Virus record (IMG/VR): IMGVR_UViG_3300045988_166572
Span: 1 to 43,718 of that record
Origin: a virus
DNA length: 43,718 nucleotides
Direction: 5' to 3' (one strand)
The notes under the pieces are model-generated. The model did not search any database and was not told the origin of the DNA. It saw nothing but the letters and a program-made list of their open reading frames with translations. Positions 1,974 through 42,093 of this stretch are shown in pieces. Numbering within the stretch: position 1 is the first letter of the stretch; the number at the start of each line of letters is the position of its first letter. The position numbers were made by a program, and so were the translations under genes.

Positions 1974-2745
1974 AAAGGCAAAGGAAGCCAGAAAACTATA
2001 TAAAAGTGGAATGAAGCTGGTTGAAATTTCAAGGCAACTGGATTGTTCTGCTGCAACTATTCGGACTTGGAAGAACCGCTATAAGTGGGATGGCGAAAGC
2101 GAAACGTTTCAAAACCAAAATGAAACGAAACGAAACGTTTCAGAGAAAAGTAAATCAAAGAAAATAGAGAAAGAAAGGGCTGTCGCACATGAGGTTGAGT
2201 CAGTAATACAAAATACGGATTTAACCGATAAGCAACATCTTTTTTGTATATATTACATTCGGTGTTTTAATGCTACCAAGGCATATCAGAAAGCATATGA
2301 CTGTGATTATGCAACAGCTCTGGTGAATGGTTCGCGATTGCTAGGAAATGCTAGGATAAAAGAAGAAATTCTGCGATTAAAGCAGGAACGTTTAAACAGG
2401 GAGTTCCTGAGTGAAGCAGATATTTTCCAGAGGTACATGGATATTGCCTTTGCTGATATTAATGATTTTGTTGAAATACATGCCGGATTTGCGTTGGCAA
2501 AAGATGGAGTTGACGGAACTATTATTAGCGAAGTGAGCAATACAACGAATGGGATTAAGATAAAGCTTGCTGACCGAATGAAAGCCTTGCAATGGCTTGC
2601 AGATCATATGGATCTTGCCACCGAGAAGCAGAAAGCAGAGATTGCACTGTTGAAATCAAGAGCAGATGCAGGTAAGGATGCCAGGGAGGATAAGCTGGAT
2701 AAATTCTTTGAGCAGATAGAAGGTGTATTAAAGGATGCTGAATAA
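1942..2745 (+). CDS. terS: Terminase small subunit (N-terminal HTH + Terminase_2/P27-like core)
   Basis: LVEISRQLDCSAATIRTWKNRYKW HTH, then TDKQHLFCIYYIRCFNATKAYQKAY...GNARIKEEILRLK. Overlaps terL by 11 nt. Start uncertain (GTG 1942 or TTG 1951). Confidence 0.85.
   Translation: MITLSKSSQNEKAKEARKLYKSGMKLVEISRQLDCSAATIRTWKNRYKWDGESETFQNQNETKRNVSEKSKSKKIEKERAVAHEVESVIQNTDLTDKQHLFCIYYIRCFNATKAYQKAYDCDYATALVNGSRLLGNARIKEEILRLKQERLNREFLSEADIFQRYMDIAFADINDFVEIHAGFALAKDGVDGTIISEVSNTTNGIKIKLADRMKALQWLADHMDLATEKQKAEIALLKSRADAGKDAREDKLDKFFEQIEGVLKDAE
2101..2141. repeat. Two copies of the perfect 10-bp palindrome GAAACGTTTC (2101-2110, 2132-2141) plus GAAAC x3 (2122-2136) inside terS
   Basis: Read directly from the sequence. 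Lies in the linker between the HTH and core domains of terS. Confidence 0.9.
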
Positions 2746-3946
2746 TCTGTACACTCCCAAACAGCTTGATACATTCCGTTTTGCCGTAAACAAAGACTAT
2801 TTTATGCTGATCAATCACGGCGCAAAGCGTACCGGAAAGACAATTCTGGACAATGATCTGTTTTTGCACGAACTTCGCCGTATTAAAAAGATAGCCTCTG
2901 CACAGGGGGTTGAGAACCCACAATATATTTTAGCGGGCGCCGATCTTGGAGCGCTTAACCGTAATGTGCTGATCGAACTTTCCAATAAGTACGGTATCGA
3001 GTTTCATTTTGATAAATTTAACCGCTTTAAGCTATTTGGGGTGCAGGTGTGCTGTTTTGGACATTCTAAGATCAATGATTTGGGGCGCATCCGAGGAATG
3101 ACAGCATATGGAGCCTATATCAATGAGGGCACTATGGCAAAGCAGGAAGTGTTTGACGAGATCAAATCCAGATGCTCCGGTAATGGGGCAAGGATGCTGA
3201 TCGACACGAACCCGGATAACCCAGAGCATTGGTTGAAGAAAGATTTTATTGACAAGGCAGATGGGAAAATCATCAAAGCGGTACAGTATCGCCTTGATGA
3301 CAACACGTTTCTGTCAGAGAGATACAAGCAGAACATGAAAGAAACTACACCGTCTGGCATGTTTTATGATCGCAACATTGAAGGTCTGTGGGTTATGGGA
3401 GAAGGGGCCGTATACCGGGACTTTAATGCAAAAATCCATTATATCAGCAGAGCAGAATTGCAAAGGGTTAATTTTGTCAAGTATATTGCCGGGGTGGATT
3501 GGGGATATGAACATTTCGGGGCAATCGTGCTGATCGGCAAAGATGAGCAGGGTTGCTATTACTTGATTAGAGAGGTTGCCCGCCAGTTTGAAGAGATAGA
3601 TTTCTGGTTAGAGCAGGCGCTGGCAATTAAGGTTGAGTACGGTAATATTCCATTCTACTGTGACTCTGCCCGACCTGAATATGTCAAGAAATTTAAGCAG
3701 CAGGGTTTGCGTGCTATTAATGCAAACAAAGCAGTATTAAGCGGAATTGAGCGTGTGGCCCAATTATACAAGCAGAATAAACTACGAATTGTGGATGATG
3801 TTGAGCGGTTCCGGGATGAAATCTATATGTATGTTTGGAATGAAAAGACCGGAGAGCCAATAAAACAGTTTGATGATGATCAGGATGCTATTCGGTATGC
3901 AATTTACACGGATGAGAACCGCGGTGGTATCAGTATTTTGAAATGA
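2735..3946 (+). CDS. terL: Terminase large subunit (PBSX-type)
   Basis: Walker A GAKRTGKT near the N-terminus, 403 aa, and the canonical position between terS and portal. Confidence 0.95.
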   Translation: MLNNLYTPKQLDTFRFAVNKDYFMLINHGAKRTGKTILDNDLFLHELRRIKKIASAQGVENPQYILAGADLGALNRNVLIELSNKYGIEFHFDKFNRFKLFGVQVCCFGHSKINDLGRIRGMTAYGAYINEGTMAKQEVFDEIKSRCSGNGARMLIDTNPDNPEHWLKKDFIDKADGKIIKAVQYRLDDNTFLSERYKQNMKETTPSGMFYDRNIEGLWVMGEGAVYRDFNAKIHYISRAELQRVNFVKYIAGVDWGYEHFGAIVLIGKDEQGCYYLIREVARQFEEIDFWLEQALAIKVEYGNIPFYCDSARPEYVKKFKQQGLRAINANKAVLSGIERVAQLYKQNKLRIVDDVERFRDEIYMYVWNEKTGEPIKQFDDDQDAIRYAIYTDENRGGISILK

Positions 3947-3984
3947 GGTAGAGAGTGGAAAAGACATTGTAAGCATATAATTCC

Positions 3985-4013
3985 TTGTAGCTGTTCCTTT
4001 TTTGGCGTATAAT
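3985..4013 (+). promoter_or_regulatory. Candidate sigma-A promoter of moron 1
   Basis: -35 TTGTAG (3985-3990), 17-nt spacer, -10 TATAAT (4008-4013), 21 nt upstream of ATG 4035. Confidence 0.45.
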
Positions 4014-4034
4014 GGTAAAAAGGGGGGATTTACA

Positions 4035-4946
4035 ATGGATAAAAAGAATGAAAAACAAAAGAAGAAATGCTTTATTATTACACCTATAGGTAATGAAAAC
4101 TCAGAAATATTCAGAAAGGCGAAGGGTGTTATTGAAAGTACAATTAAGCCTATTTTACAAGAATATGATTTTGATGATATTAAGCCTGCGTATGAAATAA
4201 ATATGTCAGGCATGATTAGTACACAAATTATCAATCGAATAATAAATGATGATTTAGTAGTGGCTAATCTAACAGGGAACAATCCTAATGTTATGTATGA
4301 ATTATGTTTGCGGCATGTTGTTGCAAAACCGATAATTCATATTTGTGAGAGTGGAACTTCGCTTCCTTTTGATGTTAAGGATAATAGAACGATATTTTAT
4401 GTAGACGATATGCTTGGTGCGGAAGAATTAAAATACAATTTGAGGAAATTTTTAGATAAAATAGATTATTTAGAAGATTGTATGGATAATCCAATTTATA
4501 ATGCATACAGATATGGAAAATTACTAAAAGAAACACAAGGAACTAAGGAGAATGAAATATTAAAGATTTTGCTACAAATACAAAATACATTGGGTCTACA
4601 ACAACGTTATAATACTTTTATCATACCAGGGGGACACAGTATTGATTTTGATTCTGCTTTTGCAGGAGTTAGAGATGAACAACTTGGAAAAGAAGAATTG
4701 CGCAAAGTCAATGGAGATTTGCTTCAAAAATGGTTACCGTATAATGGTCATAAATTGAAGGTACATGAGCTTGCGAAAAAACTAGATACAAAGTCGTCAA
4801 CTATAATTTATGTAGCAAAAAAAGTAGGACTCGATGTAAATAATCAATTATCAGAATTGAATGCTGATATGGTAAACAAGATTTTAACATACATTTGTAA
4901 TAATATCATAGAAGGAGATCCTAACGAGTTCGAAGAAAAAGAATGA
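4035..4946 (+). CDS. Moron protein: N-terminal nucleoside 2-deoxyribosyltransferase/TIR-like Rossmannoid domain + C-terminal IF2_N-like helical DNA/RNA-binding motif
   Basis: ATG 4035 lies 6 nt after AAAGGGGGGA; the TTG 4002 of the ORF track has no SD. CFIITPIG....DLVVANLTGNNPNVMYELCLRHVVAKPIIHI fits the NDT-like pattern, and KVHELAKKLDTKSSTIIYVAKKVGLDV fits IF2_N. AT-rich. Confidence 0.75.
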   Translation: MDKKNEKQKKKCFIITPIGNENSEIFRKAKGVIESTIKPILQEYDFDDIKPAYEINMSGMISTQIINRIINDDLVVANLTGNNPNVMYELCLRHVVAKPIIHICESGTSLPFDVKDNRTIFYVDDMLGAEELKYNLRKFLDKIDYLEDCMDNPIYNAYRYGKLLKETQGTKENEILKILLQIQNTLGLQQRYNTFIIPGGHSIDFDSAFAGVRDEQLGKEELRKVNGDLLQKWLPYNGHKLKVHELAKKLDTKSSTIIYVAKKVGLDVNNQLSELNADMVNKILTYICNNIIEGDPNEFEEKE

Positions 4947-5040
4947 ACAACCTTCTTCTATGCCAAGTATGATAAAGAGAAGAAGTGATACAATTGTGAC
5001 GAGGGTGCAATATTAAAATTGATTCTATTTTCAAAGGAAA

Positions 5041-5072
5041 AATGACAGGTCTTTAATAACCTGTCATTTTTT
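5041..5072 (+). terminator. Rho-independent terminator of moron 1
   Basis: AATGACAGGT (5041-5050) pairs perfectly with ACCTGTCATT (5059-5068), 8-nt loop, then a T-run to 5072. Confidence 0.8.
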
Positions 5073-5086
5073 GTGGGAGAAATTAA

Positions 5087-6460
5087 ATGGATATTGAAAC
5101 AATAAGACAATTAATAAAAAAATATGAGTCTGGCCATGCAGCATTCATAATGCAGGCAGAGGTGGCAAAGAGATATTATCGTAATGAAACGGATATCTTG
5201 TTTCGAAATAAACAGAAAGAAGAGGAAAAAGAGGAGGCAAATAATCCTCTACGGAATGCAGATAATCGAATTCCGAGGAATTTTCATGGATTGATTGTCA
5301 ACCAAAAGGCTGCTTATGCTTTTACAGCACCACCATTATTTGATGTAGGCAGTACAGAGAGTAATAAACGTATAACGGAAGCTTTGGGTGATGAGTATGC
5401 TAAGAATTGTATGGAGTTGTGTGTGAATGCTGCAAACACCTCTATCGCCTGGGTGCATTACTGGAAAAGTGATAATGGCTTTGAATGGGCAGTTGTTCCA
5501 AGTGAGCAGATTATCCCGGTATTTGACCGAAATCTTAAGCGCAGACTGATTGGAGCAATGCGGGTATACCCGGACACCGACGATGCAACGGGTGATATTT
5601 ATACGGTATACGAATACTGGACAGACACAGAGTGTCAGGCATTTCGACGCAGAACTGGTGATGAATTGGAATTGCTGACCTATTATGATATGTTTATGGA
5701 CCCGGAGAGTGGTGATATGGTAGCGGATTACCAACATGATTTCGGGGAAGTACCATTTATTCCATTTTACAACAACAATATACATACAGACGATTTGCGA
5801 AACATTAAGCCGCTGATAGACGTATACGATAAGGTCTACAGCGGTTTTATTAATGATTTGGATGATATACAGGAGTTAATTTTTGTACTGTCTGGATATG
5901 GTGGCGAAGATTTGAACGGTTTCCTATCTGATTTGAAAAAATATAAAACCATCAAGGTAGACGGGGACGAGGGCGGTGCAGTGTCCACCCTTAATATTGA
6001 GATTCCAATTGAAGCAAGAAACAGTGTATTGGAAGCAACAAGAAAGGCAATCTTCGAACAGGGGCAAGGATTTGACCCACAACCAGAGAACTTTGGAAAT
6101 CGGTCGGGTGAAGCATTGAAATTTATGTATTCTCTTTTGGAAATGAAAACGGGATTGATGGAAACAGAGTTTAAACTTGGATTTTCACGTCTGATTCGTG
6201 CAATTTGTAAGGCACTCGGTATTGAATGCAGCGTGATTATTCAAACATGGACTCGTACTAGCATTAAAAATGATGTGGAACAGGCACAAATTTGCAGAGA
6301 ATCTGTTGGAATTGTAAGTCAAAAGACGATATTGAAAAACCATCCTTTAGTTGAGGATGCGGATGCAGAAATAAAGCAGCTTGAGACAGAAGAAAAAGAG
6401 AATCAAAAAAAGACAGAGCTCTATGTTGATGCATTTCAAAGAGAGAATAACGATGGGTAA
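5087..6460 (+). CDS. Portal protein (SPP1 gp6-like)
   Basis: 457 aa, lying between terL and the MuF head protein. GGGAGA SD before ATG 5087. Confidence 0.88.
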   Translation: MDIETIRQLIKKYESGHAAFIMQAEVAKRYYRNETDILFRNKQKEEEKEEANNPLRNADNRIPRNFHGLIVNQKAAYAFTAPPLFDVGSTESNKRITEALGDEYAKNCMELCVNAANTSIAWVHYWKSDNGFEWAVVPSEQIIPVFDRNLKRRLIGAMRVYPDTDDATGDIYTVYEYWTDTECQAFRRRTGDELELLTYYDMFMDPESGDMVADYQHDFGEVPFIPFYNNNIHTDDLRNIKPLIDVYDKVYSGFINDLDDIQELIFVLSGYGGEDLNGFLSDLKKYKTIKVDGDEGGAVSTLNIEIPIEARNSVLEATRKAIFEQGQGFDPQPENFGNRSGEALKFMYSLLEMKTGLMETEFKLGFSRLIRAICKALGIECSVIIQTWTRTSIKNDVEQAQICRESVGIVSQKTILKNHPLVEDADAEIKQLETEEKENQKKTELYVDAFQRENNDG

Positions 6461-26220: not shown

Positions 26221-27573
26221 TCAGTAAAAATGAAAACCGCATAGTTTGCGGGTTTCCGGATCTACCTGAATAGCTTTAATATATTTTTTCCAGAAGATTT
26301 TCTTATTTTCAGCATCCAGTGAACGATATAAGTTGATCCAGTCACCCTGAAAGAAGGAGACCAGATTCTCACGTTTTTCAATAGTATTCTCGATGTCGCA
26401 TACAGTGGATAGCTCCATTAATTTCTTTTCAAGCAGTTCATATTGACTTTCGTAATAAGAATCCGTGATACGGCCTTTCTGGTACATCAAATTCAATCGT
26501 CCCATTTCATCATGAATTACCTTCGCATTATTTCCGGATTCCTGTTCGGAGGCAGCCATGCTTTTCAGCTTTTCAATGTCGCGCTGCAGAAAGATCAGGA
26601 CATTTTCAATCAGATAATTTTCTACGGTCTTTTCCAGTATGGACGCTCCGCCATGCCGGTTAAATTTATTCCCACAACGATATTTTATGTAGATGCTCTG
26701 ACCGCCGTTTTTCAGGTTCTGTTTCTTCCGGTAACCAGTGAAGTTGTTTCCGCAGATCGGACATTTAATCAGTGATGTAAAAATGTAAGGCTCATATTGT
26801 CCGGTATTCTGCTTAGTAGTTCCTATTGTGCGGATCTGCTCGTATTGTTCTCTGGTAAGGTACGGTTCACACCAGTTTGGATTGCCACGGAATGAGCCGG
26901 AATACTTCTCGTTTTTAAAGAGACGGTCTATAACGTTGTCAGAGGGGGTATTTTGGCCATATTTCATATTTAGGTAACGAATTACGTCACGAATGGAAAA
27001 AGTCTTAAAATAACGCTCATACGCGCTCACAACGATATGCGAGACGGATTCATCCTTTTGTACATATCCGTCAACCACCTTATAGCCATATGGAGCCATG
27101 CGTCCACTGATCACTTTTCCCTGGGCTTCCTTATGCCGGAATACTGCTTTGATTCGTTCGGAGGTACGGTCACATTCATTCTGTGCAACTGCCAGCATAA
27201 TATTAATCTTAAGCTGGCCATCAGCGGTGGAAGAGTCATAGTCCTCATAGATGGTTTTCCAGTTACAGTGGTGTGCATCTAAGATTTCCTGTGTATTGTG
27301 GTAGTCCTTCACATTACGGAACCATCGGTCTAATTTGGTTACCAGGATCAGGTCCACCTTATTCGCTTTCACATCATCCAGAAGCCTCATAAGGTCCTTA
27401 CGGTTCTTCATTTTCTTCCGGGCAGTAATGCCTTCATCTTCGTAGTAACCGACAATAACATATCCGTGATCTTTTGCGTATTGCGTGAGATCGTCTTTCT
27501 GTGTGGCGAGGGATAAGCCCTTTTCCACCTGCAGGTCGGTAGACACACGATCATAAATGGCACAACGGATCAT
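26221..27573 (-). CDS. int: Large serine recombinase (integrase)
   Basis: MIRCAIYDRVSTDLQ catalytic Ser motif, recombinase domain, zinc ribbon CPICGNNF...YRCGNK, coiled-coil tail. ATG 27573 follows GAGGAGG; the 27612 start of the ORF track is rejected. Confidence 0.95.
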   Translation of the reverse strand: MIRCAIYDRVSTDLQVEKGLSLATQKDDLTQYAKDHGYVIVGYYEDEGITARKKMKNRKDLMRLLDDVKANKVDLILVTKLDRWFRNVKDYHNTQEILDAHHCNWKTIYEDYDSSTADGQLKINIMLAVAQNECDRTSERIKAVFRHKEAQGKVISGRMAPYGYKVVDGYVQKDESVSHIVVSAYERYFKTFSIRDVIRYLNMKYGQNTPSDNVIDRLFKNEKYSGSFRGNPNWCEPYLTREQYEQIRTIGTTKQNTGQYEPYIFTSLIKCPICGNNFTGYRKKQNLKNGGQSIYIKYRCGNKFNRHGGASILEKTVENYLIENVLIFLQRDIEKLKSMAASEQESGNNAKVIHDEMGRLNLMYQKGRITDSYYESQYELLEKKLMELSTVCDIENTIEKRENLVSFFQGDWINLYRSLDAENKKIFWKKYIKAIQVDPETRKLCGFHFY

Positions 27574-27611
27574 TATATCATCCTCCTCATACATTTTATG
27601 GCAGCAGAGCA

Positions 27612-27643
27612 TAAAAATGCCCGGTGCTTGTATTTTCGCCGGG
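27612..27643 (-). terminator. Possible minus-strand terminator after the two-gene cassette
   Basis: On the minus strand, CCCGGCG-aaaatacaag-CACCGGG (6 of 7 bp) is followed by CATTTTTAT. It shares GGG with the 50-bp inverted repeat. Confidence 0.35.
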
Positions 27644-27749: not shown

Positions 27750-28178
27750 TTACATATATTTTATTGATTCAAATGTATAGTAAATAGAAACTATTATATT
27801 GGACAAACCACCTATAAAGAGTATGGAGGAAAGTACAGTATTATCAAAGAAAATCCAACATATAATAGAAAGCAAATAAATAAGCAATCCCACAACAATA
27901 TTTGACAAGTATATACGCTCATGGTGAGTTTTTTTGAACTGTGCAACTTTCTGCGGATTTTTAGGAACAGCTAGGTAGATGGTTAAAATAGTAAGTAAAG
28001 CTCCAATAAAAGTGGCTGACACAGATATCAATGTTACAATTTTATTATTGTCTAAGTTAAAGAAATTGTTTTTCTGGAAATAGTCTATGTGGTCATTAAG
28101 ATATTTACATAGAAATATAGTAAATATGGGAAAAATTATGCAAGAATAATATTTAAGTTTACTTTTAATTTTGTTCAT
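27750..28178 (-). CDS. 142-aa four-helix integral membrane protein (RexB-like by size/topology/context)
   Basis: Hydrophobic stretches at about aa 10-27, 47-71, 89-111 and 114-136. ATG follows GGGGGGTAAAGT. AT-rich. Lies 46 nt downstream of the 277-aa gene. Confidence 0.8.
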   Translation of the reverse strand: MNKIKSKLKYYSCIIFPIFTIFLCKYLNDHIDYFQKNNFFNLDNNKIVTLISVSATFIGALLTILTIYLAVPKNPQKVAQFKKTHHERIYLSNIVVGLLIYLLSIICWIFFDNTVLSSILFIGGLSNIIVSIYYTFESIKYM

Positions 28179-28224
28179 ACTTTACCCCCCATATACTAAT
28201 TTTGGTATGTCATATTAAATGTAC

Positions 28225-29058
28225 TTATGCTAAAGCTTCCGATAGTTTTTTCTTAATAATTGATGTATTTTTTACAGCATCTTCAGTAATATCAAAAGGT
28301 GTGTTTTTTGTATATATAGTTTCCAAAAAATTTATGGTTTCTTCCAAACCATATTCGTTTTTTCCTATCAGATGAATAGCATTGTAAGTATCCCTCTCTT
28401 GAGTAGAAATTTCAACTAATTTATCAATCAACTTATTGTTTGAACCTTGTTTTAATTTAAACTCTACAGAATACGATTCGTATTTGAAATCACCGAGAGA
28501 AACAGCAACTGATTGAATGTTGTCTTTTGATTGCTCTGGAGCAAATGAAAGCTGTAATTTACACATATTTTTTAATTGTTTTGCTGCATGGCTTACATCT
28601 CTAATTTTTTCAGGAGCAATAAAAATTTTTACCATATTACCAGATTTAGCATAAATACAGTCTTGTAGTATACAATGGATCTTAGAAATATTTTTGTGTT
28701 GAATGGCAGACATTCGGTTTTTTGTACAGTCAATATAAAAATAAGTATAGGCTTCTAATTGAGTGTTAGGGTCTATAGAGGTATAAGGTTCTGTTTCGTT
28801 AGTCTGCTTATTTCTTTTTTGTAAGAAATTAGTATACTTCAATTCACTCTGTTTTGAACATGTACCAAAAATATAATTGATACCAATTTCCAAGATATCA
28901 ATATTATATTTTTCTTTTTCGTACTCATGCCTATATGTATTGCATGAAGGAAAGGATTTTTTTACCAAATCCAAAGTGGATATAGGATATATCCCATTGT
29001 TATACATTGACGGCTGTGGTTCAAATGTATAAAACTTTATAATCTTCGAAACGCTCAT
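28225..29058 (-). CDS. 277-aa soluble protein of unknown family (RexA-like by size/context)
   Basis: ATG 29058 (MSVSKIIKFYTFEP...) follows GGAGGGGG; the longer 29082 start contains that SD. No motif of a named family recognised. AT-rich. Confidence 0.8.
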   Translation of the reverse strand: MSVSKIIKFYTFEPQPSMYNNGIYPISTLDLVKKSFPSCNTYRHEYEKEKYNIDILEIGINYIFGTCSKQSELKYTNFLQKRNKQTNETEPYTSIDPNTQLEAYTYFYIDCTKNRMSAIQHKNISKIHCILQDCIYAKSGNMVKIFIAPEKIRDVSHAAKQLKNMCKLQLSFAPEQSKDNIQSVAVSLGDFKYESYSVEFKLKQGSNNKLIDKLVEISTQERDTYNAIHLIGKNEYGLEETINFLETIYTKNTPFDITEDAVKNTSIIKKKLSEALA

Positions 29059-29127
29059 TAGTACCCCCTCCATTTCAAACATCAGTTCGATTGAACTGCC
29101 GTTTTTTTTTAGAGAGTAATAGTGTGA

Positions 29128-29391: not shown

Positions 29392-29757
29392 TCAAATATC
29401 TTCCCCGGTTTCTTGTTTATAAAGATTCCTCATAAATTCCATATGTGCCTTAAATCTTTCAGGTGGCATATTCTTTTTCATATCGAAAAGAGAGCGCATA
29501 TCTGGGTCTTCAAACATTTCTTGTGCCATTTTGGCCGTTTCTTCATTGAGATAGTAGCCAGAGGTTTCTTCTCCAGTCATGAGATAATCCAAACTTACTT
29601 CAAAATAGTCTGCAATTTTCTGTAACTTATCTCTTTTTGGCTCGCTTCGGCCAGATTTCCAATCAGAAAATGTAGATTTTGTAATACCAGTTGCCCGGAC
29701 CACATCAGCGTCTTTAACCCCTCTTAAATCCCTTAACTTGCAATAAATTTCGTACAT
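29392..29757 (-). CDS. XRE-family HTH repressor (CI-like)
   Basis: LRDLRGVKDADVVRATGITKSTFSDWKSGRSEPKRDKLQKIADYFEVSLDYL. Divergent from the cro-like gene. Confidence 0.85.
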   Translation of the reverse strand: MYEIYCKLRDLRGVKDADVVRATGITKSTFSDWKSGRSEPKRDKLQKIADYFEVSLDYLMTGEETSGYYLNEETAKMAQEMFEDPDMRSLFDMKKNMPPERFKAHMEFMRNLYKQETGEDI

Positions 29758-37009: not shown

Positions 37010-38125
37010 ATGAAAGAAGAATTTAGAAGCCGGGTGTATACAGATAGACCAGATTATGCTGATTTTGAACCAGCAGCAAAGTTTAATGCCATACAGAGCA
37101 TTATAGCAAAGAGATTGAGAGAGCATCCAAACGCTATATGCTCATACTCTGGCGGTTCGGACAGCGATATTATGATCGACTTGATTGAGCGGACACGAAA
37201 GATTTTCAATTTACCGTCGGTAAAGTATGTATTCTTTAATACTGGACTTGAAATGAAAGCCACAAAAGATCATGTTAGGGATACCGCAGAAAAATATGGT
37301 GTGGAAATCGAAGAGTGCAGGCCAAAGATAAATATTGTACTGGCAACAAGAAAATATGGGGTGCCGTTTGTATCAAAAATTATGTCTGCTGGATTATCTG
37401 GGTGGCAAAAGAAGAAGGTACCGTTATCAATCGCGCAGGAGTACGATCAGGCAGAGGATAAACAGGCAAAGCGGGAAGAACTGAGAGAAAGATACCCCAA
37501 TTGTGAAAGTACAATTAACTTTCTCTGTTGCTGTAACTCCGCAGGAGAACCAAGACCCAATATCCAGTTGGTTATCAATTCATCGAAGTATATGCGGGAT
37601 TTTATAGAAGAATATCCACCGGACTTCCCGATAAGCGCAGACTGTTGCGTTCATTGCAAGAAAAATGTTGCACATAAGGTACAAAGGGATTACGAGATGG
37701 TTATTACCGGCGAGCGCAGGGATGAGGGCGGTATGAGATCTGTGCCGAGGAAAGATAATACAGCCTTATGCTTCACGGAAACATCTAGTGGGCAGTATCG
37801 TTTGAGACCACTTTATTATGTGAGCGATAAGGATAAAGAATGGTACAAAAATTACTATGAGGTACGGTATTCTGATGCATATGAAGTATATGGATTGACC
37901 CGTACCGGATGTTGTGGATGTCCTATCTCTTACAAGGCTATTGATGATCTGGAACTGATCCGACCATATGAGCCGAATGTAGTAAAGGCTGCATGGAACA
38001 TCTTTGGTAAAAGCTATGAATACAGGAGGAAGTATAACGAGTATAAGCAGATGCGGATGAACCAAGACAAGGAATCGGCTGCTAATGTGGAAGGGCAGAT
38101 GAGTATAGAGGATTTTATAAAATAA
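37010..38125 (+). CDS. PAPS-reductase-family (PP-loop ATP pyrophosphatase, IbrA/DndC-like) protein with Cys-rich C-terminal half
   Basis: PP-loop CSYSGGSDSDIM, and Cys clusters CCCNSAG, CCVHCKK and TGCCGCP. Confidence 0.8.
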   Translation: MKEEFRSRVYTDRPDYADFEPAAKFNAIQSIIAKRLREHPNAICSYSGGSDSDIMIDLIERTRKIFNLPSVKYVFFNTGLEMKATKDHVRDTAEKYGVEIEECRPKINIVLATRKYGVPFVSKIMSAGLSGWQKKKVPLSIAQEYDQAEDKQAKREELRERYPNCESTINFLCCCNSAGEPRPNIQLVINSSKYMRDFIEEYPPDFPISADCCVHCKKNVAHKVQRDYEMVITGERRDEGGMRSVPRKDNTALCFTETSSGQYRLRPLYYVSDKDKEWYKNYYEVRYSDAYEVYGLTRTGCCGCPISYKAIDDLELIRPYEPNVVKAAWNIFGKSYEYRRKYNEYKQMRMNQDKESAANVEGQMSIEDFIK

Positions 38126-38180
38126 CAGAAAGGAGCCGAGCCTCAGGCCTGGGTAACGATATATCGGGCTCCTTTTGAAA

Positions 38181-40703
38181 ATGAATTATAAAGAATTTTT
38201 AGAATCAAAAATAGAACTTGCAACAGAAAGCGGATTCATAGTGGATCCTGCAGATATTAATCCGGCATTAAAGCCACATCAGAGGGATGCGGTAAGGTGG
38301 GCATTAAAAGGTGGCAGGCGTGCACTGTTTGAGTCGTTTGGTCTGGGAAAGACCATACAGGAAATTGAATTCTGCTATCAGGCAGTTAAGCATTGCGGTG
38401 GCAGGGCATTGATTGTACTTCCACTTGGAGTAAAACAGGAATTCACGCGGGATGCAGTAGAGATTCTTGGATATGATCAGCCGGAGTACTGTCGGACGAT
38501 GGAAGAGGTGGGAAAATGCCGGTCCCGGATTGTTTTGACGAATTACGAGAGAGTACGTGACGGAGACATCCGGCCAGAGTATTTCGCGGCAACCTCACTG
38601 GATGAAGCCAGTGTTTTACGGAGTTTTGGAAGTAAAACCTATCAGACGTTCCTTGATAAATTTAAAAATGTTCCATACAAGCTAGTTGCTACCGCAACTC
38701 CTTCCCCAAACCGGTATAAGGAGCTGATTCATTATGCTGGATACCTAGAGGTGATGGATACCGGACAGGCCTTAACAAGATTTTTTCAAAGAGACAGTAC
38801 CAAGGCAAATAACCTGACCTTATATCCCAATATGGAAGATGAGTTCTGGATGTGGGTAAGCAGCTGGGCGTTGTTTGTAACGAAACCATCTGATCTTAAC
38901 CCAGAGTATTCTGACGAAGGCTATGATCTGCCGCCTCTGGATGTGAGGTGGGTGGAAATACCGGTACACTATGGAGATACTGCAGATCGTGACGGGCAGA
39001 TACAGTTGTTTCAGGAAGCAGCAGAGGGGTTAAAAGAAGCGGCAGCCGTTAAGCGGGAAAGTATCGACCAGCGCGTGGCTGAAATGAAACGGATTGTTGA
39101 GGAATCACCGGAAGATCATTTCCTATTATGGCACGATCTGGAAAATGAACGGAATGCAATCAAGAAAGCATTGCCAGAAACAGTAGATATTTATGGATCT
39201 ATGAATTATGACGAACGAGAGAAGAGAGTGATTGATTTTTCTAATGGAAAGTGCCGGTTGTTTGCAACCAAGAAGTCACTGTCAGGATCCGGCTGCAATT
39301 TTCAAAGATATTGCCATAAGGAAATCTTTTTAGGTATCGATTATGAATTTAATGATTTCATACAGGCAGTGCACCGGTGTTACCGATTTTTACAGAAAGA
39401 ACCGGTTGTGATCTACATCATTTACATGGAGAATGAGCGGCAGATCAAGGAAGCATTGATTGAAAAGTGGAAAAATCATAATTACATGGTTGCGAAGATG
39501 ATTGAGATTGTAAAGAAGTACGGATTGAACTCTGCCAATAAGGTGGAACGACTGGAAAGGAAAATGGGAGTGGAAGGAAGCAGAGAAGAACGGACAGTAA
39601 AGGGAACCTATTACACAGCGGTTTATGGGGACTGCGTAGAAGAAACACGGGAAATGGAGAGTAACAGCGTTGATCTGATCCATACCTCGATCCCGTTCGG
39701 AAATCATTATGAGTACAGTGCCAATTATAATGACTTCGGACATAACCAGAATACGGAACGTTTCTTTGAACAGATGGATTACCTGACACCGGAACTGCTC
39801 CGTATTTTAAAACCGGGAAGAGTGGCAGCTATTCATGTTAAAGACAGGGTGCTCTTCGGTAATGTGACCGGAACCGGCTTTCCTACGATGGAACCCTTTC
39901 ATGCAGCCTGCATCAGCCATTATATGAAGCATGGTTTCCAATATTTTGGAATGATAACGGTAGTAACGGATGTGGTTCGTGAAAATAACCAGACTTATCG
40001 ATTGGGATGGTCGGACTGCTGCAAGGATGGAACCAAGATGGGAGTGGGGTGTCCGGAATATATCCTGCTTTTCCGGAAACAGCAGACAGATCACTCAAAG
40101 GGATTTGCGGATGAGAGGGTAACCAAGTCAAAAGAAGAATATACCCGTGCACAGTGGCAGATTGATGCTCATGGGTACTGGAGATCATCCGGAGACAGGC
40201 TGATAGCCAAAGAAGAACTGGAAAGCATATCAGTTGATAATCTGCAGAATGTGTACAGACAGTACAGCCGGGAAAATGTCTACAGTTACGAGGATCATGT
40301 TAGGTTGGCTAAGAAGCTGGACGAAAACGGCAAGTTACCGGCTACTTTCATGGTAGTTGCTCCGGGATCCTGGAATCAGTTGGAGGTATGGGACGACATC
40401 AACCGGATGCGTACATTAAACACAACGCAGAGTCGCAGACGCGCCCAGATGCACGTGTGCCCGCTGCAGTTGGATATCGTGGAGCGGATCATCAACAGAT
40501 ACAGTAATGAGGGAGATACAGTCTATGATCCATTTGGTGGACTTATGACAGTACCGATGACGGCGGTTAAGATGCACCGGAACGGAAAGGGGTGTGAACT
40601 GAACCCAGATTACTTCCGTGACGGTGTTGGATATCTACAGGCAGCGGAGAACGAGGTGGACGAGCCTACATTGTTTGATTTTATACCGGGGGTGATGCCG
40701 TGA
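38181..40703 (+). CDS. SNF2/DEAD-like helicase fused to a beta-class N6A/N4C DNA methyltransferase
   Basis: Helicase motifs FGLGKT and LDEAS. MTase motif IV-like TSIPF and C-terminal SAM motif VYDPFGGLMT. ATG 38181 (or TTG 38175) lies directly after a hairpin (38128-38175). Confidence 0.88.
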   Translation: MNYKEFLESKIELATESGFIVDPADINPALKPHQRDAVRWALKGGRRALFESFGLGKTIQEIEFCYQAVKHCGGRALIVLPLGVKQEFTRDAVEILGYDQPEYCRTMEEVGKCRSRIVLTNYERVRDGDIRPEYFAATSLDEASVLRSFGSKTYQTFLDKFKNVPYKLVATATPSPNRYKELIHYAGYLEVMDTGQALTRFFQRDSTKANNLTLYPNMEDEFWMWVSSWALFVTKPSDLNPEYSDEGYDLPPLDVRWVEIPVHYGDTADRDGQIQLFQEAAEGLKEAAAVKRESIDQRVAEMKRIVEESPEDHFLLWHDLENERNAIKKALPETVDIYGSMNYDEREKRVIDFSNGKCRLFATKKSLSGSGCNFQRYCHKEIFLGIDYEFNDFIQAVHRCYRFLQKEPVVIYIIYMENERQIKEALIEKWKNHNYMVAKMIEIVKKYGLNSANKVERLERKMGVEGSREERTVKGTYYTAVYGDCVEETREMESNSVDLIHTSIPFGNHYEYSANYNDFGHNQNTERFFEQMDYLTPELLRILKPGRVAAIHVKDRVLFGNVTGTGFPTMEPFHAACISHYMKHGFQYFGMITVVTDVVRENNQTYRLGWSDCCKDGTKMGVGCPEYILLFRKQQTDHSKGFADERVTKSKEEYTRAQWQIDAHGYWRSSGDRLIAKEELESISVDNLQNVYRQYSRENVYSYEDHVRLAKKLDENGKLPATFMVVAPGSWNQLEVWDDINRMRTLNTTQSRRRAQMHVCPLQLDIVERIINRYSNEGDTVYDPFGGLMTVPMTAVKMHRNGKGCELNPDYFRDGVGYLQAAENEVDEPTLFDFIPGVMP

Positions 40704-41107
40704 ATTTATTTGAAAAAGTAAAATGCAAAGGCTTTTATAAGCCATTTAAAGACGGCAGATGGTTGTATCTTGACAGGAAAACGTTAACTGCTGATGCAAT
40801 GGACAATAACCTCGCAGACGGAAATAATGATGGTACTGTTGAAAAAGATGTAGAGTACATCGAAAAGACCTATTACAAGCACGTTGAAAAGAATTTCATT
40901 GGTGTGATTGTCGGATATAAAGATATTGTTATTAAGGGTTATCTTGATGCAGTTTATCAAGATGAATGTGATGTAGGAGTTGGAGTTATTCCAGAAGCAT
41001 TTTATGTATCTAAAAGATCAAAAGAAACTGTTAAATGTGCGGTTGTCTATTATGCAAACAACTTGAAGCATTATGTACCGTTGGAGGATCTGGAGGTGTT
41101 GCCATGA
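40700..41107 (+). CDS. Hypothetical protein between the two methyltransferases
   Basis: GTG start overlapping the upstream stop, 135 aa. Confidence 0.6.
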   Translation: MNLFEKVKCKGFYKPFKDGRWLYLDRKTLTADAMDNNLADGNNDGTVEKDVEYIEKTYYKHVEKNFIGVIVGYKDIVIKGYLDAVYQDECDVGVGVIPEAFYVSKRSKETVKCAVVYYANNLKHYVPLEDLEVLP

Positions 41108-42093
41108 TTCAGATATTGGAATTGTTTGGAGGAATAGGATCACCAAGATGTGCATTGCGCAATCTTGGAATACCGGTAAAAGCCATTGATTATGTGGAAA
41201 TTGATGAAAAGGCGGTCCGTTCTTATAATGCCATGTTTGCCGGTGAACTGCCTTACAAAACACAGTCTGTCGTTGGCTGGAATTTAAAACCGGATATTTT
41301 AATTCACGGAAGTCCATGTCAGGATTTTAGTATAGCAGGCAAACAGAAGGGAGCAGATGAAGGATCAGAAACACGGTCAAGCCTCATGTGGGAAACAATT
41401 CATATCATTGAACAGATGGGAGAATGGAAGCCACGCTATGTTATATGGGAAAATGTGAAAAACATCCGTAGTAAGTATATGGTTTGCAACCACAACCGGT
41501 ATATGTTAGAAATGGCGAAAATGGGATATACAAGTAGCTATGAACTTTTAGACGCAAGGGAATTTGGATTACCCCAAGCAAGACAGAGATACTTCACAGT
41601 GTCGGTTCTTGGGAATGAGTATTTTGATTTTTCAAACCTGATACATACTCCAATGCGAAATATTAAAGATTTCCTGGAAAGTGAAGTGCCTGAATTTTAC
41701 ACGGTCAGGCAGCCAAGTATGTTACGAAGGATAGATGGATTGTCAGATTATGATGGTGATTTTAAAGGCAGGATTCCTGTTATTAAGGATTTTACTATGA
41801 CAATTACATGTAAGCAGATGCGAAATCCCAACAGTGGAGTAATTGACTTGGGAAACGGAAAATACAGATATCTGACAGAAAGAGAATGCTGGCGCATACA
41901 GGGTTATTCGGATGAAGATTTTGATAATGCATCGAAAGTGCATCCACGGAAGGAAAACTGTTTGAATGGTGCTTTATACAAACAAGCCGGAAACAGCATT
42001 CCGGTTCCGATTTTTGAAAGTATATTTCGAAAGATAATTCTTGGAGAAACTGAAATGATGGAAGATCAGATCGGACAACTCCGGTTCGCATAG
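41104..42093 (+). CDS. dcm: DNA (cytosine-5)-methyltransferase
   Basis: ATG 41104 (ATGA overlap). Motifs ELFGGIGS (I), GSPCQDFS (IV), WENVKN (VI), QARQRYF (VIII) and GNSIPV (X). Confidence 0.95.
   Translation: MIQILELFGGIGSPRCALRNLGIPVKAIDYVEIDEKAVRSYNAMFAGELPYKTQSVVGWNLKPDILIHGSPCQDFSIAGKQKGADEGSETRSSLMWETIHIIEQMGEWKPRYVIWENVKNIRSKYMVCNHNRYMLEMAKMGYTSSYELLDAREFGLPQARQRYFTVSVLGNEYFDFSNLIHTPMRNIKDFLESEVPEFYTVRQPSMLRRIDGLSDYDGDFKGRIPVIKDFTMTITCKQMRNPNSGVIDLGNGKYRYLTERECWRIQGYSDEDFDNASKVHPRKENCLNGALYKQAGNSIPVPIFESIFRKIILGETEMMEDQIGQLRFA

Follow-up and report, generated by a model that had tools for sequence, protein, structure and literature searches.

An exchangeable cassette between terL and the portal gene of a gut phage encodes an NDT-like protein with an IF2_N tail, a candidate solo defence effector

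An AT-rich insert at the terL-portal junction

The DNA analysed here, a viral record of 43,718 nt (IMGVR_UViG_3300045988_166572) referred to below as the window, belongs to a temperate, Lachnospiraceae-type gut phage, its temperate lifestyle being evident from genes for a serine recombinase and a CI repressor. All features located below are on the + strand. Between the large terminase gene terL (2735-3946; Pfam Terminase_6N, 2.3e-11, and Terminase_6C, 5.7e-6) and the portal gene (5087-6460; Pfam SPP1_portal, E = 1.5e-114) sits an insert of 1.14 kb (3947-5086), bordered by these two genes on its left and right. At 0.308, its GC content is below that of terL (0.433) and that of the window as a whole (0.393), and ranks in the lowest 2% of all 1140-nt windows in a window-wide comparison. 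According to the list of open reading frames (ORFs), a single one lies inside, running from an ATG at 4035 to a stop codon at 4946 and encoding a protein of 303 aa that consists of an NDT-like (nucleoside 2-deoxyribosyltransferase-like) domain, a helical stalk, and an IF2_N domain. The first-pass annotation, made from the letters of the sequence, had pointed out an AT-rich block of about 1.1 kb at this junction, which is confirmed, and every peptide it cited is present in the ORF. The same protein, identical in sequence, was found on 21 contigs from different samples, and it occupies the same slot wherever its location is shown.

The earlier view of the gene as a moron is borne out by comparison with close relatives. 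In 16 sister phages with 93-95% identical TerL, the insert is missing and the junction between terL and the portal gene is a tight 12-14 nt, while none of 80 TerL-related loci holds a homolog of the 303-aa protein. Other related phages carry different cargo framed by the same promoter and terminator, in one instance a SLATT_5 membrane effector (Pfam score 39.7 bits, cut-off 29.5; PADLOC 4.5e-17). The contents of the site alternate among the NDT-like enzyme, the SLATT effector, other membrane proteins, and nothing at all. Because the cargo differs behind a shared promoter and terminator, we conclude that this is a cassette slot. The 303-aa gene is an accessory moron and not a core gene. A similar situation is found at the hotspots of P2/P4 prophages, where unrelated, defence-type cargo alternates among close relatives at a fixed backbone site (PMC9122126); the slot described here differs in that it lies inside the late packaging/head operon and in that a conserved promoter and terminator frame the cargo.

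The insert also contains a decayed gene fossil (4937-5016) corresponding to the 5′ end of a gene that lies 3′ of the cassette in donor-type phages. It was recognized by its similarity to locus L090 (73% identity over 82 nt); its translation, TTFFYAKYDKEKK*YNCDEGAILKL, aligns with KQPFYYATYDAEKKVYDRDEDGNIKY of the intact counterpart.

Expression signals of the slot

A promoter-like element, TTGTAG-17 nt-TATAAT, is located at 3985-4013, exactly where it had first been placed. We regard it as a predicted promoter on the basis of the rarity and conservation of the pattern, which occurs once in the window compared with 0.01 occurrences expected by chance. An extended form of the motif, CTTGTRG-N9-TTTTGNCRTATAAT, is present in 14 of 257 fetched loci, with a cargo gene directly downstream every time. 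The motif is kept upstream of relatives of the gene in other phages, into which it moves together with the gene, and also in front of unrelated cargo genes that occupy this slot. A generic promoter scan omits the element because its -35 hexamer fits the consensus weakly, at 3/6 positions; the scan of the window reports 35 sites and 35.8 in shuffled sequence, and therefore no excess. A ribosome-binding site, AAAGGGGGGA, can be read directly at 4019-4028, 6 nt 5′ of the ATG at 4035, and deserves the description "strong" that it had been given. At this site, AAAGGGGGAT is conserved in three other loci (L007, L090, and L178).

At the 3′ end of the insert, an intrinsic-terminator hairpin (5037-5072) combines a 14-bp stem, an 8-nt loop, and a T-run. 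With -23.3 kcal/mol (z = -6.1), its folding was equalled by none of 200 shuffles. The same hairpin is found downstream of other cargos and also in L071, where the slot is empty and the sequence is 92% identical to that of the window over 5003-5090. The terminator is therefore a property of the slot and not of the gene; the terminator noted initially is confirmed, but it is not one of the gene's own signals. As for the features by which a moron is recognized, deviant GC content is seen, the strong terminator is common to all cargos of the slot, and the predicted promoter motif is conserved together with the cargo.

An N-terminal domain of the NDT superfamily

The assignment of the N-terminal domain (aa 1-145; 4035-4469) as N-glycosidase-like draws on AF2 modeling, Foldseek, PADLOC, Pfam matches of relatives, and invariant residues. 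In an AF2 model computed from 147 sequences, the domain has a pLDDT above 90, and the best 50 PDB matches of this confident model are all NDT, MilB/BcmB, or DNPH1, with no TIR structure among them. Matches to the NDT superfamily reach an E-value of 1e-5 and a TM score of 0.74 (relative to the target). This model replaced a first one obtained from 30 close relatives (pLDDT 70) with ambiguous fold matches, namely DNPH1, TIR-STING, SARM1, flavodoxin-like reductases, and KaiA, all at E ~1e-3; TIR structures surfaced only with this low-confidence model.

Sequence searches are less direct. The 303-aa protein itself matches no Pfam NDT or TIR model, PF05014 included, at E <= 1, and neither a single-sequence phmmer search of the PDB nor a search of NCBIfam returned a match. 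At E <= 0.01, 46 of 147 relatives match PF05014 (best 4.8e-7), and none of the 147 matches any Pfam TIR family. Since its own Pfam match is missing and the link is carried by the relatives and the fold, membership is stated at the level of the superfamily only. The PADLOC model PDLC00733, a CBASS-type "Effector/TIR", is matched by the protein (E = 6e-7) and by 147/147 relatives (best 3e-13, profile positions 242-372 of 388), "TIR" being the library's own name for the model. Fold matches in BFVD include a Cap12/Pycsar TIR protein. Judged by its modelled fold, the domain is a member of the NDT superfamily (flavodoxin-like α/β fold) and not a canonical TIR, so that half of the original "NDT/TIR-like" label stands. 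It shares with this superfamily (PF05014, clan CL0498) the fold, a Glu in Y-E-L in the helix after strand 3, and, judging by motif and strand position, probably the aromatic residue of the β1 loop that faces this Glu; it differs in having ~150 extra residues that form the stalk and the IF2_N domain.

PDLC00733 is the only model of the defence library that the protein matches, and together with the BFVD fold match it links the protein to the "TIR" effectors of CBASS and Pycsar systems (Cap12/PycTIR type). Unlike them, the 303-aa gene comes without a cyclase or sensing domain (SAVED, STING, and cNMP-binding domains were searched for in the protein and none was found), its neighbours in the window are terL and the portal gene, and its relatives are mostly solo. 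A retron-type NDT effector was also considered and is unsupported, PDLC00733 again being the sole PADLOC match.

Active-site residues and the expected substrate

A conserved Glu in a YEL context had been proposed as the hallmark of the domain, and it is found as E89, which is invariant in 140/140 independent sequences and likewise across 147 representatives. A profile alignment of NVMYEL with GVGYEL of Rcl puts E89 on the Glu of the Rcl YEL motif, although this alignment is weak (E = 0.69). F13 is invariant as well (137/137) and lies within an F-x-x-x-P motif resembling F17-L-G-G-P of MilB; its presumed equivalence to MilB F17 is read from the F-x-x-x-P spacing and the strand position. Together with N83, N85, Y88-E89, R93-H94, and D113, F13 makes up a catalytic signature of the family whose residues supply ready mutant controls. 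More than 15 residues of the core are essentially invariant across phyla, indicating very strong purifying constraint.

The identity of the β1 residue bears on the substrate. In MilB, the F17Y replacement switches specificity from CMP to dCMP (PMC4081090), and in TIRs with NADase activity the β1 position corresponding to F13 is occupied by Phe or Ala (PMC11204291). A Tyr at this position enforces 2′-deoxy specificity in NDT and DNPH1; with a Phe, a ribose substrate is therefore expected, and the predicted substrate would be of the NAD+ or NMP type or a ribonucleotide.

These comparisons also raise a metabolic reading, in which the protein would be a MilB/DNPH1-type hydrolase of (modified) NMPs that serves phage metabolism or acts as a sanitiser, starving rivals whose DNA is hypermodified. 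The closest structures are indeed NDT, MilB/BcmB, and DNPH1, the identical protein is auto-named "CMP/hydroxymethyl CMP hydrolase" in UniProt/BFVD, and F13 occupies the β1 loop as Phe17 does in MilB. However, the MilB motif F-L-(G/A)-(G/A)-P-F-(R/K), which gives specificity, is not kept: the sequence here is F-I-I-T-P-I-G, with no Arg or Lys, and the Arg23 motif of MilB is missing. No hydroxymethylase or ThyA-type gene was seen among the inspected recurrent neighbour clusters (judged by sequence features only), and the context of the family is that of prophages and defence islands, not the metabolic one of NDT enzymes. Moreover, a stalk followed by a hypervariable tail of 39 types would be unneeded for metabolism, and near-identical sister phages do without the gene. 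We regard a nucleotide-pool enzyme as unlikely.

A helical stalk and a fast-evolving IF2_N tail

The N-terminal domain is followed by a helical stalk or linker (aa 146-235; 4470-4739) with AF2 helices at residues 153-166, 171-192, and 219-233, and with a loop of low AF2 confidence at 194-220. The C-terminal domain (aa 240-286; 4752-4892) had been noted to resemble IF2_N, and profile searches agree. PF04760 scores 27.1 bits with the whole protein, above its gathering cut-off of 25.3, and 31.6 bits with the isolated tail; it is also matched by the tails of 21/22 relatives (best 3e-12). A profile of the tails finds residues 3-45 of Thermus IF2 in 4b3x, 3j4j, and 5lmv with E = 2e-5 to 4e-5. On these profile matches, we classify the domain as a true IF2_N.

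The three parts of the protein evolve at different rates. Among close relatives, mean pairwise identity is 0.81 for the core, 0.36 for the stalk, and 0.30 for the IF2_N tail, and 39 tail clusters occur on one core cluster. To our knowledge, a role of IF2_N domains in sensing phage proteins has not been described. Literature on IF2_N in connection with phages, and on NDT in connection with prophage defence, yielded no description of an NDT-like/IF2_N architecture.

Another reading takes the tail as a mimic of the domain found at the N-terminus of initiation factor 2, one that would bring the N-glycosidase to the translation apparatus instead of serving as a sensor of phage proteins. We consider this very unlikely. 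If true, the target of the enzyme would be a base linked to ribose, on a nucleotide or RNA bound to the ribosome, or else a nucleotide would be depleted locally at initiation complexes, and prophages would have a new route to translation shutdown during superinfection. The protein would then be the founding member of a very large class, in which solo immune effectors of the NDT fold carry interchangeable tails for targeting.

Family size and genomic contexts

The N-domain family is very large, with 1293 word-indexed matches and 14,091 representative clusters (~14,000 at 50% identity), and it spans many phyla. It is present in PHROGs with the function annotation "unknown", and no experimental study of it was found in the literature. 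The gene is nearly always solo: 96 of 143 loci are isolated and a recurrent partner is absent. Recurrent neighbour clusters, judged by sequence features only, resemble phage packaging genes and integrases. Individual relatives occupy several kinds of position. The one in 315.2 lies within the lysogeny module in the same orientation as the integrase and repressor, that in SA13 is a lone gene on the opposite strand, and another is found 3′ of the lysin at the end of a prophage. One relative is part of a defence island, adjoining Thoeris and PDC-M01, and another is near AbiTii.

As a further alternative, the gene could encode the toxin of an addiction or toxin-antitoxin module, or be a passenger in decay that has no current function; it is AT-rich foreign DNA, and the fossil of a neighbouring gene testifies to past rearrangement. 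The isolated loci do not favour such a reading, as a conserved small neighbour is lacking. Furthermore, all of the 21 contigs carry the same intact ORF, and its core is the strongly constrained one described above. This makes either version highly improbable.

The proximity to Thoeris called for a closer look. The active site of type II ThsB (EcThsB2) resembles those of NDT and DNPH1, its catalytic Glu even carries the number E89 as well, and a Tyr facing the catalytic Glu defines the type II ThsB subfamilies (PMC11204291). Relative P0010 lies immediately 3′ of a ThsA-Macro gene. The 303-aa protein could accordingly be imagined as an orphan ThsB-like signal generator, a prophage sensor making an ADPR-derived signal for a host-encoded effector elsewhere, and one Thoeris can use several ThsB sensors. 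However, the Thoeris beside P0010 comes with a ThsB of its own (E = 1e-97), and P0010 is encoded separately, 166 nt further downstream. No ThsA-Macro or SLATT homolog was found among 160 surveyed loci, and an adjacent multi-TM ORF is present at only 8 of 157. The window likewise offers no ThsA partner, the PADLOC ThsB models match neither the protein nor any of 147 relatives, and the β1 residue is Phe13 and not the Tyr of type II (Tyr8 in ThsB). An orphan ThsB is thus quite unlikely.

Two more specific identities were tried and rejected. The first, the ThsB of Macro-type Thoeris, failed on the lack of ThsA-Macro at the 160 loci and on the sole Thoeris neighbour having its own ThsB. The second was the distinct TIR described beside SLATT in phages of Firmicutes (Iyer et al. 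2022). The surveyed loci are without SLATT neighbours, and the 60 tblastn matches at E <= 0.01 include neither Javan281 nor SN10, the example phages of that study.

A possible one-protein effector of the lysogen

Taken as a whole, the locus is best explained as a mobile moron cassette whose gene is most likely a one-protein abortive-infection or superinfection-exclusion effector, expressed in the lysogen from its own promoter. We give this reading a probability of roughly 0.5. The first-pass annotation had already guessed at lysogen expression and defence, and this would fit the genomic contexts found here. In the proposed mechanism, the gene would be expressed in the lysogen from its predicted promoter, and the NDT-fold domain would act as an N-glycosidase with E89 as its catalytic residue. 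The stalk and the fast-evolving IF2_N tail would keep the enzyme inactive until the tail recognizes a component of an invading phage, whereupon the activated enzyme would deplete NAD+ or nucleotides and infection would be stopped.

Such a layout may be built like those of Swarozyc or SpbK. SpbK of ICEBs1 is a canonical-TIR NADase that is triggered by the portal of SPβ. It is a single NAD-degrading effector on a Firmicute mobile element that protects the host by abortive infection (PMC11984713), and in this the 303-aa protein would resemble it; the domain of SpbK is a canonical TIR, whereas the core here is NDT-like. Swarozyc (KpSwz) is a single-protein, DUF4062 TIR-like NADase found in defence islands, in which binding of the phage portal by an auxiliary domain turns on NAD+ hydrolysis (bioRxiv 10.64898/2026.05.01.722283). 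The two proteins have in common an N-terminal domain of the TIR/NDT-related N-glycosidase type, with a Glu that is predicted to be catalytic in the 303-aa protein, followed by a helical stalk and then by a small auxiliary domain at the C-terminus. In Swarozyc, this auxiliary domain is of the HTH type, in contrast to the IF2_N tail here. DUF4062 was matched neither by the 303-aa protein (E <= 1) nor by 147 relatives (E <= 0.01), and the core of the 303-aa protein is NDT/MilB/DNPH1-like and not a SARM1-type TIR.

Phage-borne N-glycosidases could alternatively serve counter-defence or metabolism.

With respect to counter-defence, an NDT-like glycosidase might destroy ADPR-derived immune signals of the host (for example cADPR isomers or His-ADPR) or blunt NAD-based immunity in another way. 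The gene is phage-borne, its fold is one that cleaves N-glycosidic bonds, and the NDT-like active site of type II ThsB attests to related chemistry in Thoeris signalling; in addition, one relative in another phage follows a gene with a match to Pfam "Sequestin". Against this stand the positions of relatives in lysogeny modules with an integrase and repressor, or on the strand that does not carry the lytic genes. In a chromosomal defence island, another relative immediately adjoins an intact Thoeris, and an anti-Thoeris gene at such a place would disarm its own host. A predicted promoter of its own and a terminator within the late operon also differ from what early expression would entail, and the SLATT effector that can take its place in the slot is no anti-defence gene. 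An anti-defence function, which had been offered as the second option from the start, is unlikely, and less likely than defence of the lysogen.

In bacterial immunity, a central place is taken by effectors of the TIR, SIR2, PNP, and DUF4062 types, which deplete NAD+ or nucleotides. If defence of the lysogen is the correct reading, a further putative effector family would join them, with ~14,000 clusters, an NDT rather than a TIR fold, and many different C-terminal tails. Its members are almost always solo and are found at prophage moron positions and in defence islands. The terL-portal slot extends the idea of prophage hotspots to gut Firmicute phages, and with a conserved promoter and terminator around alternating conflict-type cargo, it provides a way to mine new defence genes.

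The insert between terL and portal

The stretch between terL (2735-3946, Terminase_6N/6C in Pfam), which has terS upstream, and the portal gene (5087-6460, SPP1_portal, E = 1.5e-114) holds an open reading frame of 303 amino acids on the plus strand, running in the ORF listing from an ATG at 4035 to a stop at 4946. All of the peptides quoted in the first-pass annotation are present in this frame. The AT-rich insert of about 1.1 kb described there was likewise borne out: the terL-portal stretch measures 1.14 kb, has a GC content of 0.308 versus 0.393 for the window and 0.433 for terL, and falls in the lowest 2% of window segments of equal size.

The reported promoter-like element, TTGTAG and TATAAT separated by 17 nt, lies at exactly 3985-4013, and this pattern occurs once in the window, with 0.01 occurrences expected by chance. 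Because its putative -35 is weak (3 of 6 consensus positions), the element goes unlisted in a generic promoter scan, which overall did no better than on shuffled sequence. A ribosome-binding site, AAAGGGGGGA, can be read 6 nt upstream of the ATG, and a terminator hairpin (-23.3 kcal/mol, z = -6.1) is found at 5037-5072. A second perfect TATAAT with no recognisable -35 is present at 3976-3981, 27 nt 5' of the first, and a comparable upstream stretch, ATTGTAGGCGAATAAC, is found in the phage locus L178; this TATAAT could be a second start site or a piece of an UP-like AT-rich element.

An exchangeable slot

Comparison with related phages agreed with the earlier view of the insert as a moron. When 80 IMG/VR loci were fetched via TerL and their terL-portal gaps measured, the junction proved tight, at merely 12-14 nt, in 16 sister phages with TerL 93-95% identical. 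The gap is 176 nt with no ORF in L071 (TerL 99% identical), and 386, 662, 762 or 913 nt in the other phages. The 303-aa gene has no homolog in any of the 80 loci. The identical protein is encoded on 21 contigs, with the same terL and portal flanks in all places shown.

The inserts of other phages code for unrelated proteins. The 913-nt insert carries a SLATT_5 membrane effector (L007:7299-7976; Pfam 39.7 bits, cut-off 29.5; PADLOC RTasSLATT E = 4.5e-17). The products of the 662-nt and 762-nt inserts are two small proteins (L009:7306-7836 and L012:7338-7796) that match no family and contain hydrophobic stretches resembling membrane segments. In the 386-nt insert, a 123-aa protein with a HEIIH motif, also matching no family (L025:7221-7592), is encoded by a gene translationally coupled to both terL and portal. 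An upstream promoter and RBS block and a downstream hairpin with the portal RBS are common to the window, L007 and the 662-nt class. Since the hairpin region is found with these other cargos and is retained by the cargo-less L071 (92% identity over 5003-5090), the terminator belongs to the slot and not to the 303-aa gene; the strong hairpin claimed for the insert stands, its assignment to the gene does not. Of 257 fetched loci, 14 carry an extended form of the promoter motif, each time directly 5' of a cargo gene; among these cargo genes are relatives of the 303-aa gene in quite different phages (L090, L178 and L186).

Just past the stop codon, 4937-5016 is the decayed 5' end of a gene that in L090-type phages lies 3' of the cassette; the two share 73% identity across 82 nt, and the window copy now has stop codons. 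Its intact counterpart is the N-terminus (KQPFYYATYD...) of a 142-aa head-module gene in these phages, and the fragment is a trace of the cassette's arrival. The same decayed fragment is visible 3' of the cargo in L007 and L009 as well, so the various cargos have a common history of being swapped between conserved flanks. The terL-portal cassette slot is newly documented here.

The N-terminal domain

A Pfam scan of the 303-aa protein returned no match to nucleoside 2-deoxyribosyltransferases (NDTs) or TIR, PHROGs placed it in families of unknown function, and the PADLOC 'Effector/TIR' model PDLC00733 matched it with E = 6e-7. Far from rare, the family is large: an exhaustive HMMER search retrieved 14,091 representative clusters at E <= 1e-3, of which 852 reach E <= 1e-30. 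In an alignment of 147 diverse representatives, F13, N83, N85, V86, Y88, E89, F112 and D113 are invariant. PF05014 (nucleoside 2-deoxyribosyltransferase) is matched by 46 of the 147, a Pfam TIR family by none, and PDLC00733 by all, with no further defence model matched.

The initial structure model was of middling quality and matched a mixture of folds. The second, built with the 147-sequence alignment as input, has pLDDT above 90 across the N-terminal domain (residues 1-145), and its top 50 PDB matches are all NDTs, MilB/BcmB or DNPH1 (E down to 1e-5, TM up to 0.74), with no TIR structure among them. Of the NDT/TIR-like assignment made earlier, the NDT part is thus retained and the TIR part is dropped. 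The predicted conserved glutamate in a YEL context is E89, found in 140/140 unique sequences from genomes and viral contigs in an independent check; the profile's best PDB sequence matches, to Rcl/DNPH1, are weak (E = 0.69) and align NVMYEL on GVGYEL. In the same independent set F13 is conserved in 137/137, and N83, N85, M87, F112, D113, G59, L79, L110 and P153 in 140/140. An identical protein in BFVD (A0A8S5MRP4) carries the automatic name 'CMP/hydroxymethyl CMP hydrolase'. N-domain identity is 40-55% across Firmicutes, Bacteroidota, Proteobacteria, Acidobacteriota, Planctomycetota and others (genome-contig loci L104-L177), unusually high for a gene at accessory positions, which implies that the gene is both strongly constrained and often transferred horizontally.

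[quoted passage not shown] In MilB, Phe17 takes this place, and the F17Y change switches the enzyme completely from CMP to dCMP specificity (PMC4081090). From the likeness of the MilB motif F-L-(G/A)-(G/A)-P-F to F13-I-I-T-P17-I, and from the position in strand 1, we infer that F13 is the counterpart of Phe17. The predicted substrate would be ribose-bearing, of the NAD+ or ribonucleotide type.

Stalk and tail

The IF2_N-like C-terminal end proposed earlier was confirmed. The 303-aa protein scores 27.1 bits with PF04760 (cut-off 25.3), 21 of 22 isolated tails of close relatives also match it (best 3e-12), and the tail profile matches residues 3-45 of the true Thermus IF2 N-terminal domain (E = 2e-5). 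The structure model fills the stretch between core and IF2_N with long helices and a single low-confidence loop. Across the 30 closest relatives the core has a mean pairwise identity of 0.81, compared with 0.36 in this stalk and 0.30 in the tail, and BLAST groups 157 family members into 1 cluster by core and 39 by tail. The IF2_N type of tail marks a small clade; of the 147 aligned representatives, just 2 have it. A role in metabolism alone, of the MilB or DNPH1 kind, leaves several features unaccounted for: the tail is hypervariable, the Arg motif of MilB is missing, the recurrent neighbours apparently include no linked hydroxymethylase, and sister phages do not have the gene.

Genomic contexts

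In S. pyogenes prophage 315.2 the family gene lies in the lysogeny module, in the same orientation as integrase and repressor; in S. aureus phage SA13 it stands alone on the opposite strand within the replication module, and in phiEf11 it is the final gene ahead of packaging. Close full-length relatives occupy varied places: another phage's head module, the end of a prophage past the lysin, and sites next to a serine recombinase and IS66 or close to an AbiTii gene. The relative P0010 occupies a chromosomal island, directly 3' of a PDC-M01/Septu-like AAA_15 and HNH pair followed by a complete Macro-type Thoeris (L091:927-5834; ThsB E = 1e-97, ThsA-Macro E = 1e-58). A hydrophobic protein of 154 aa, matching no family, precedes these genes. 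Directly 5' of the 66%-identical relative P0002, L090:5731-5976 matches Pfam 'Sequestin' (PF21825).

A neighbourhood survey covered 160 loci, drawn from viral contigs and from the genomes of many phyla, with a median family gene length of 292 aa. At 96 of 143 loci the gene stands more than 60 nt from any neighbour on its own strand, at 26 loci it is flanked on both sides by genes of the opposite strand, and the most recurrent neighbour family reaches at most 22 of 157 loci; the gene is therefore a solo gene. Common neighbours, by sequence features only, are terminases, integrases, HNH, ArpU-like regulators and portals, and an adjacent multi-TM ORF occurs in only 8 of 157 loci. A toxin-antitoxin role lacks its conserved neighbour in the surveyed loci. 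An orphan ThsB fails three tests: the partner gene is absent (no ThsA-Macro or SLATT homolog in the surveyed loci), a profile match is absent, and Phe stands where Tyr is expected.

Proposed function

The phage is temperate, with a large serine recombinase (26221-27612, minus strand) and a CI-type repressor (29392-29757, minus strand) after the endolysin, so the cargo could be expressed in the lysogen. A lysogen-expressed single-protein effector of abortive infection or exclusion fits the evidence best, and we give this inferred function a probability of about one half. The core would act as an N-glycosidase, and the stalk and variable tail would hold the enzyme off until a trigger is sensed. 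A counter-defence enzyme, which would instead act against host immunity, is less likely, given that the family gene sits in lysogeny modules, adjoins intact Thoeris in host chromosomes and has its own putative promoter within the late operon.

N-glycosidase immune effectors are already known as a kind of system. The closest working precedent for the proposed effector is Swarozyc, in which a TIR-like DUF4062 NADase is joined by a stalk to a C-terminal HTH auxiliary domain that binds a phage portal and thereby activates NAD+ hydrolysis (bioRxiv 10.64898/2026.05.01.722283). The 303-aa protein is not a DUF4062 member, however, and therefore may work like Swarozyc without being a member of it. In keeping with the earlier statement that the domain combination was not known from described defence or anti-defence systems, our literature search found no paper describing an NDT-like, stalk and IF2_N architecture. 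The latest systematic TIR survey left out standalone TIR proteins on purpose, and the Firmicute-phage TIR of Iyer et al. is a separate family.

Other regions of the window

A second AT-rich island (27750-29082, minus strand, GC 0.287), the sole other region as low as the moron, is flanked by the serine integrase and the CI repressor. Its two genes encode 142 and 285 aa; neither matches a Pfam or PADLOC model, and both are additional candidates for accessory genes expressed in the lysogen. The early region at 37010-42093 (plus strand) is rich in DNA-modification genes: a PAPS-reductase-like protein (37010-38125), an 842-aa SNF2-helicase/N6_N4 methylase fusion (38175-40703) and a C5 cytosine methylase (41035-42093). 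Sister phages (see L001-L005) carry different methylase sets in their place, so this is a second variable region, with a probable anti-restriction role.
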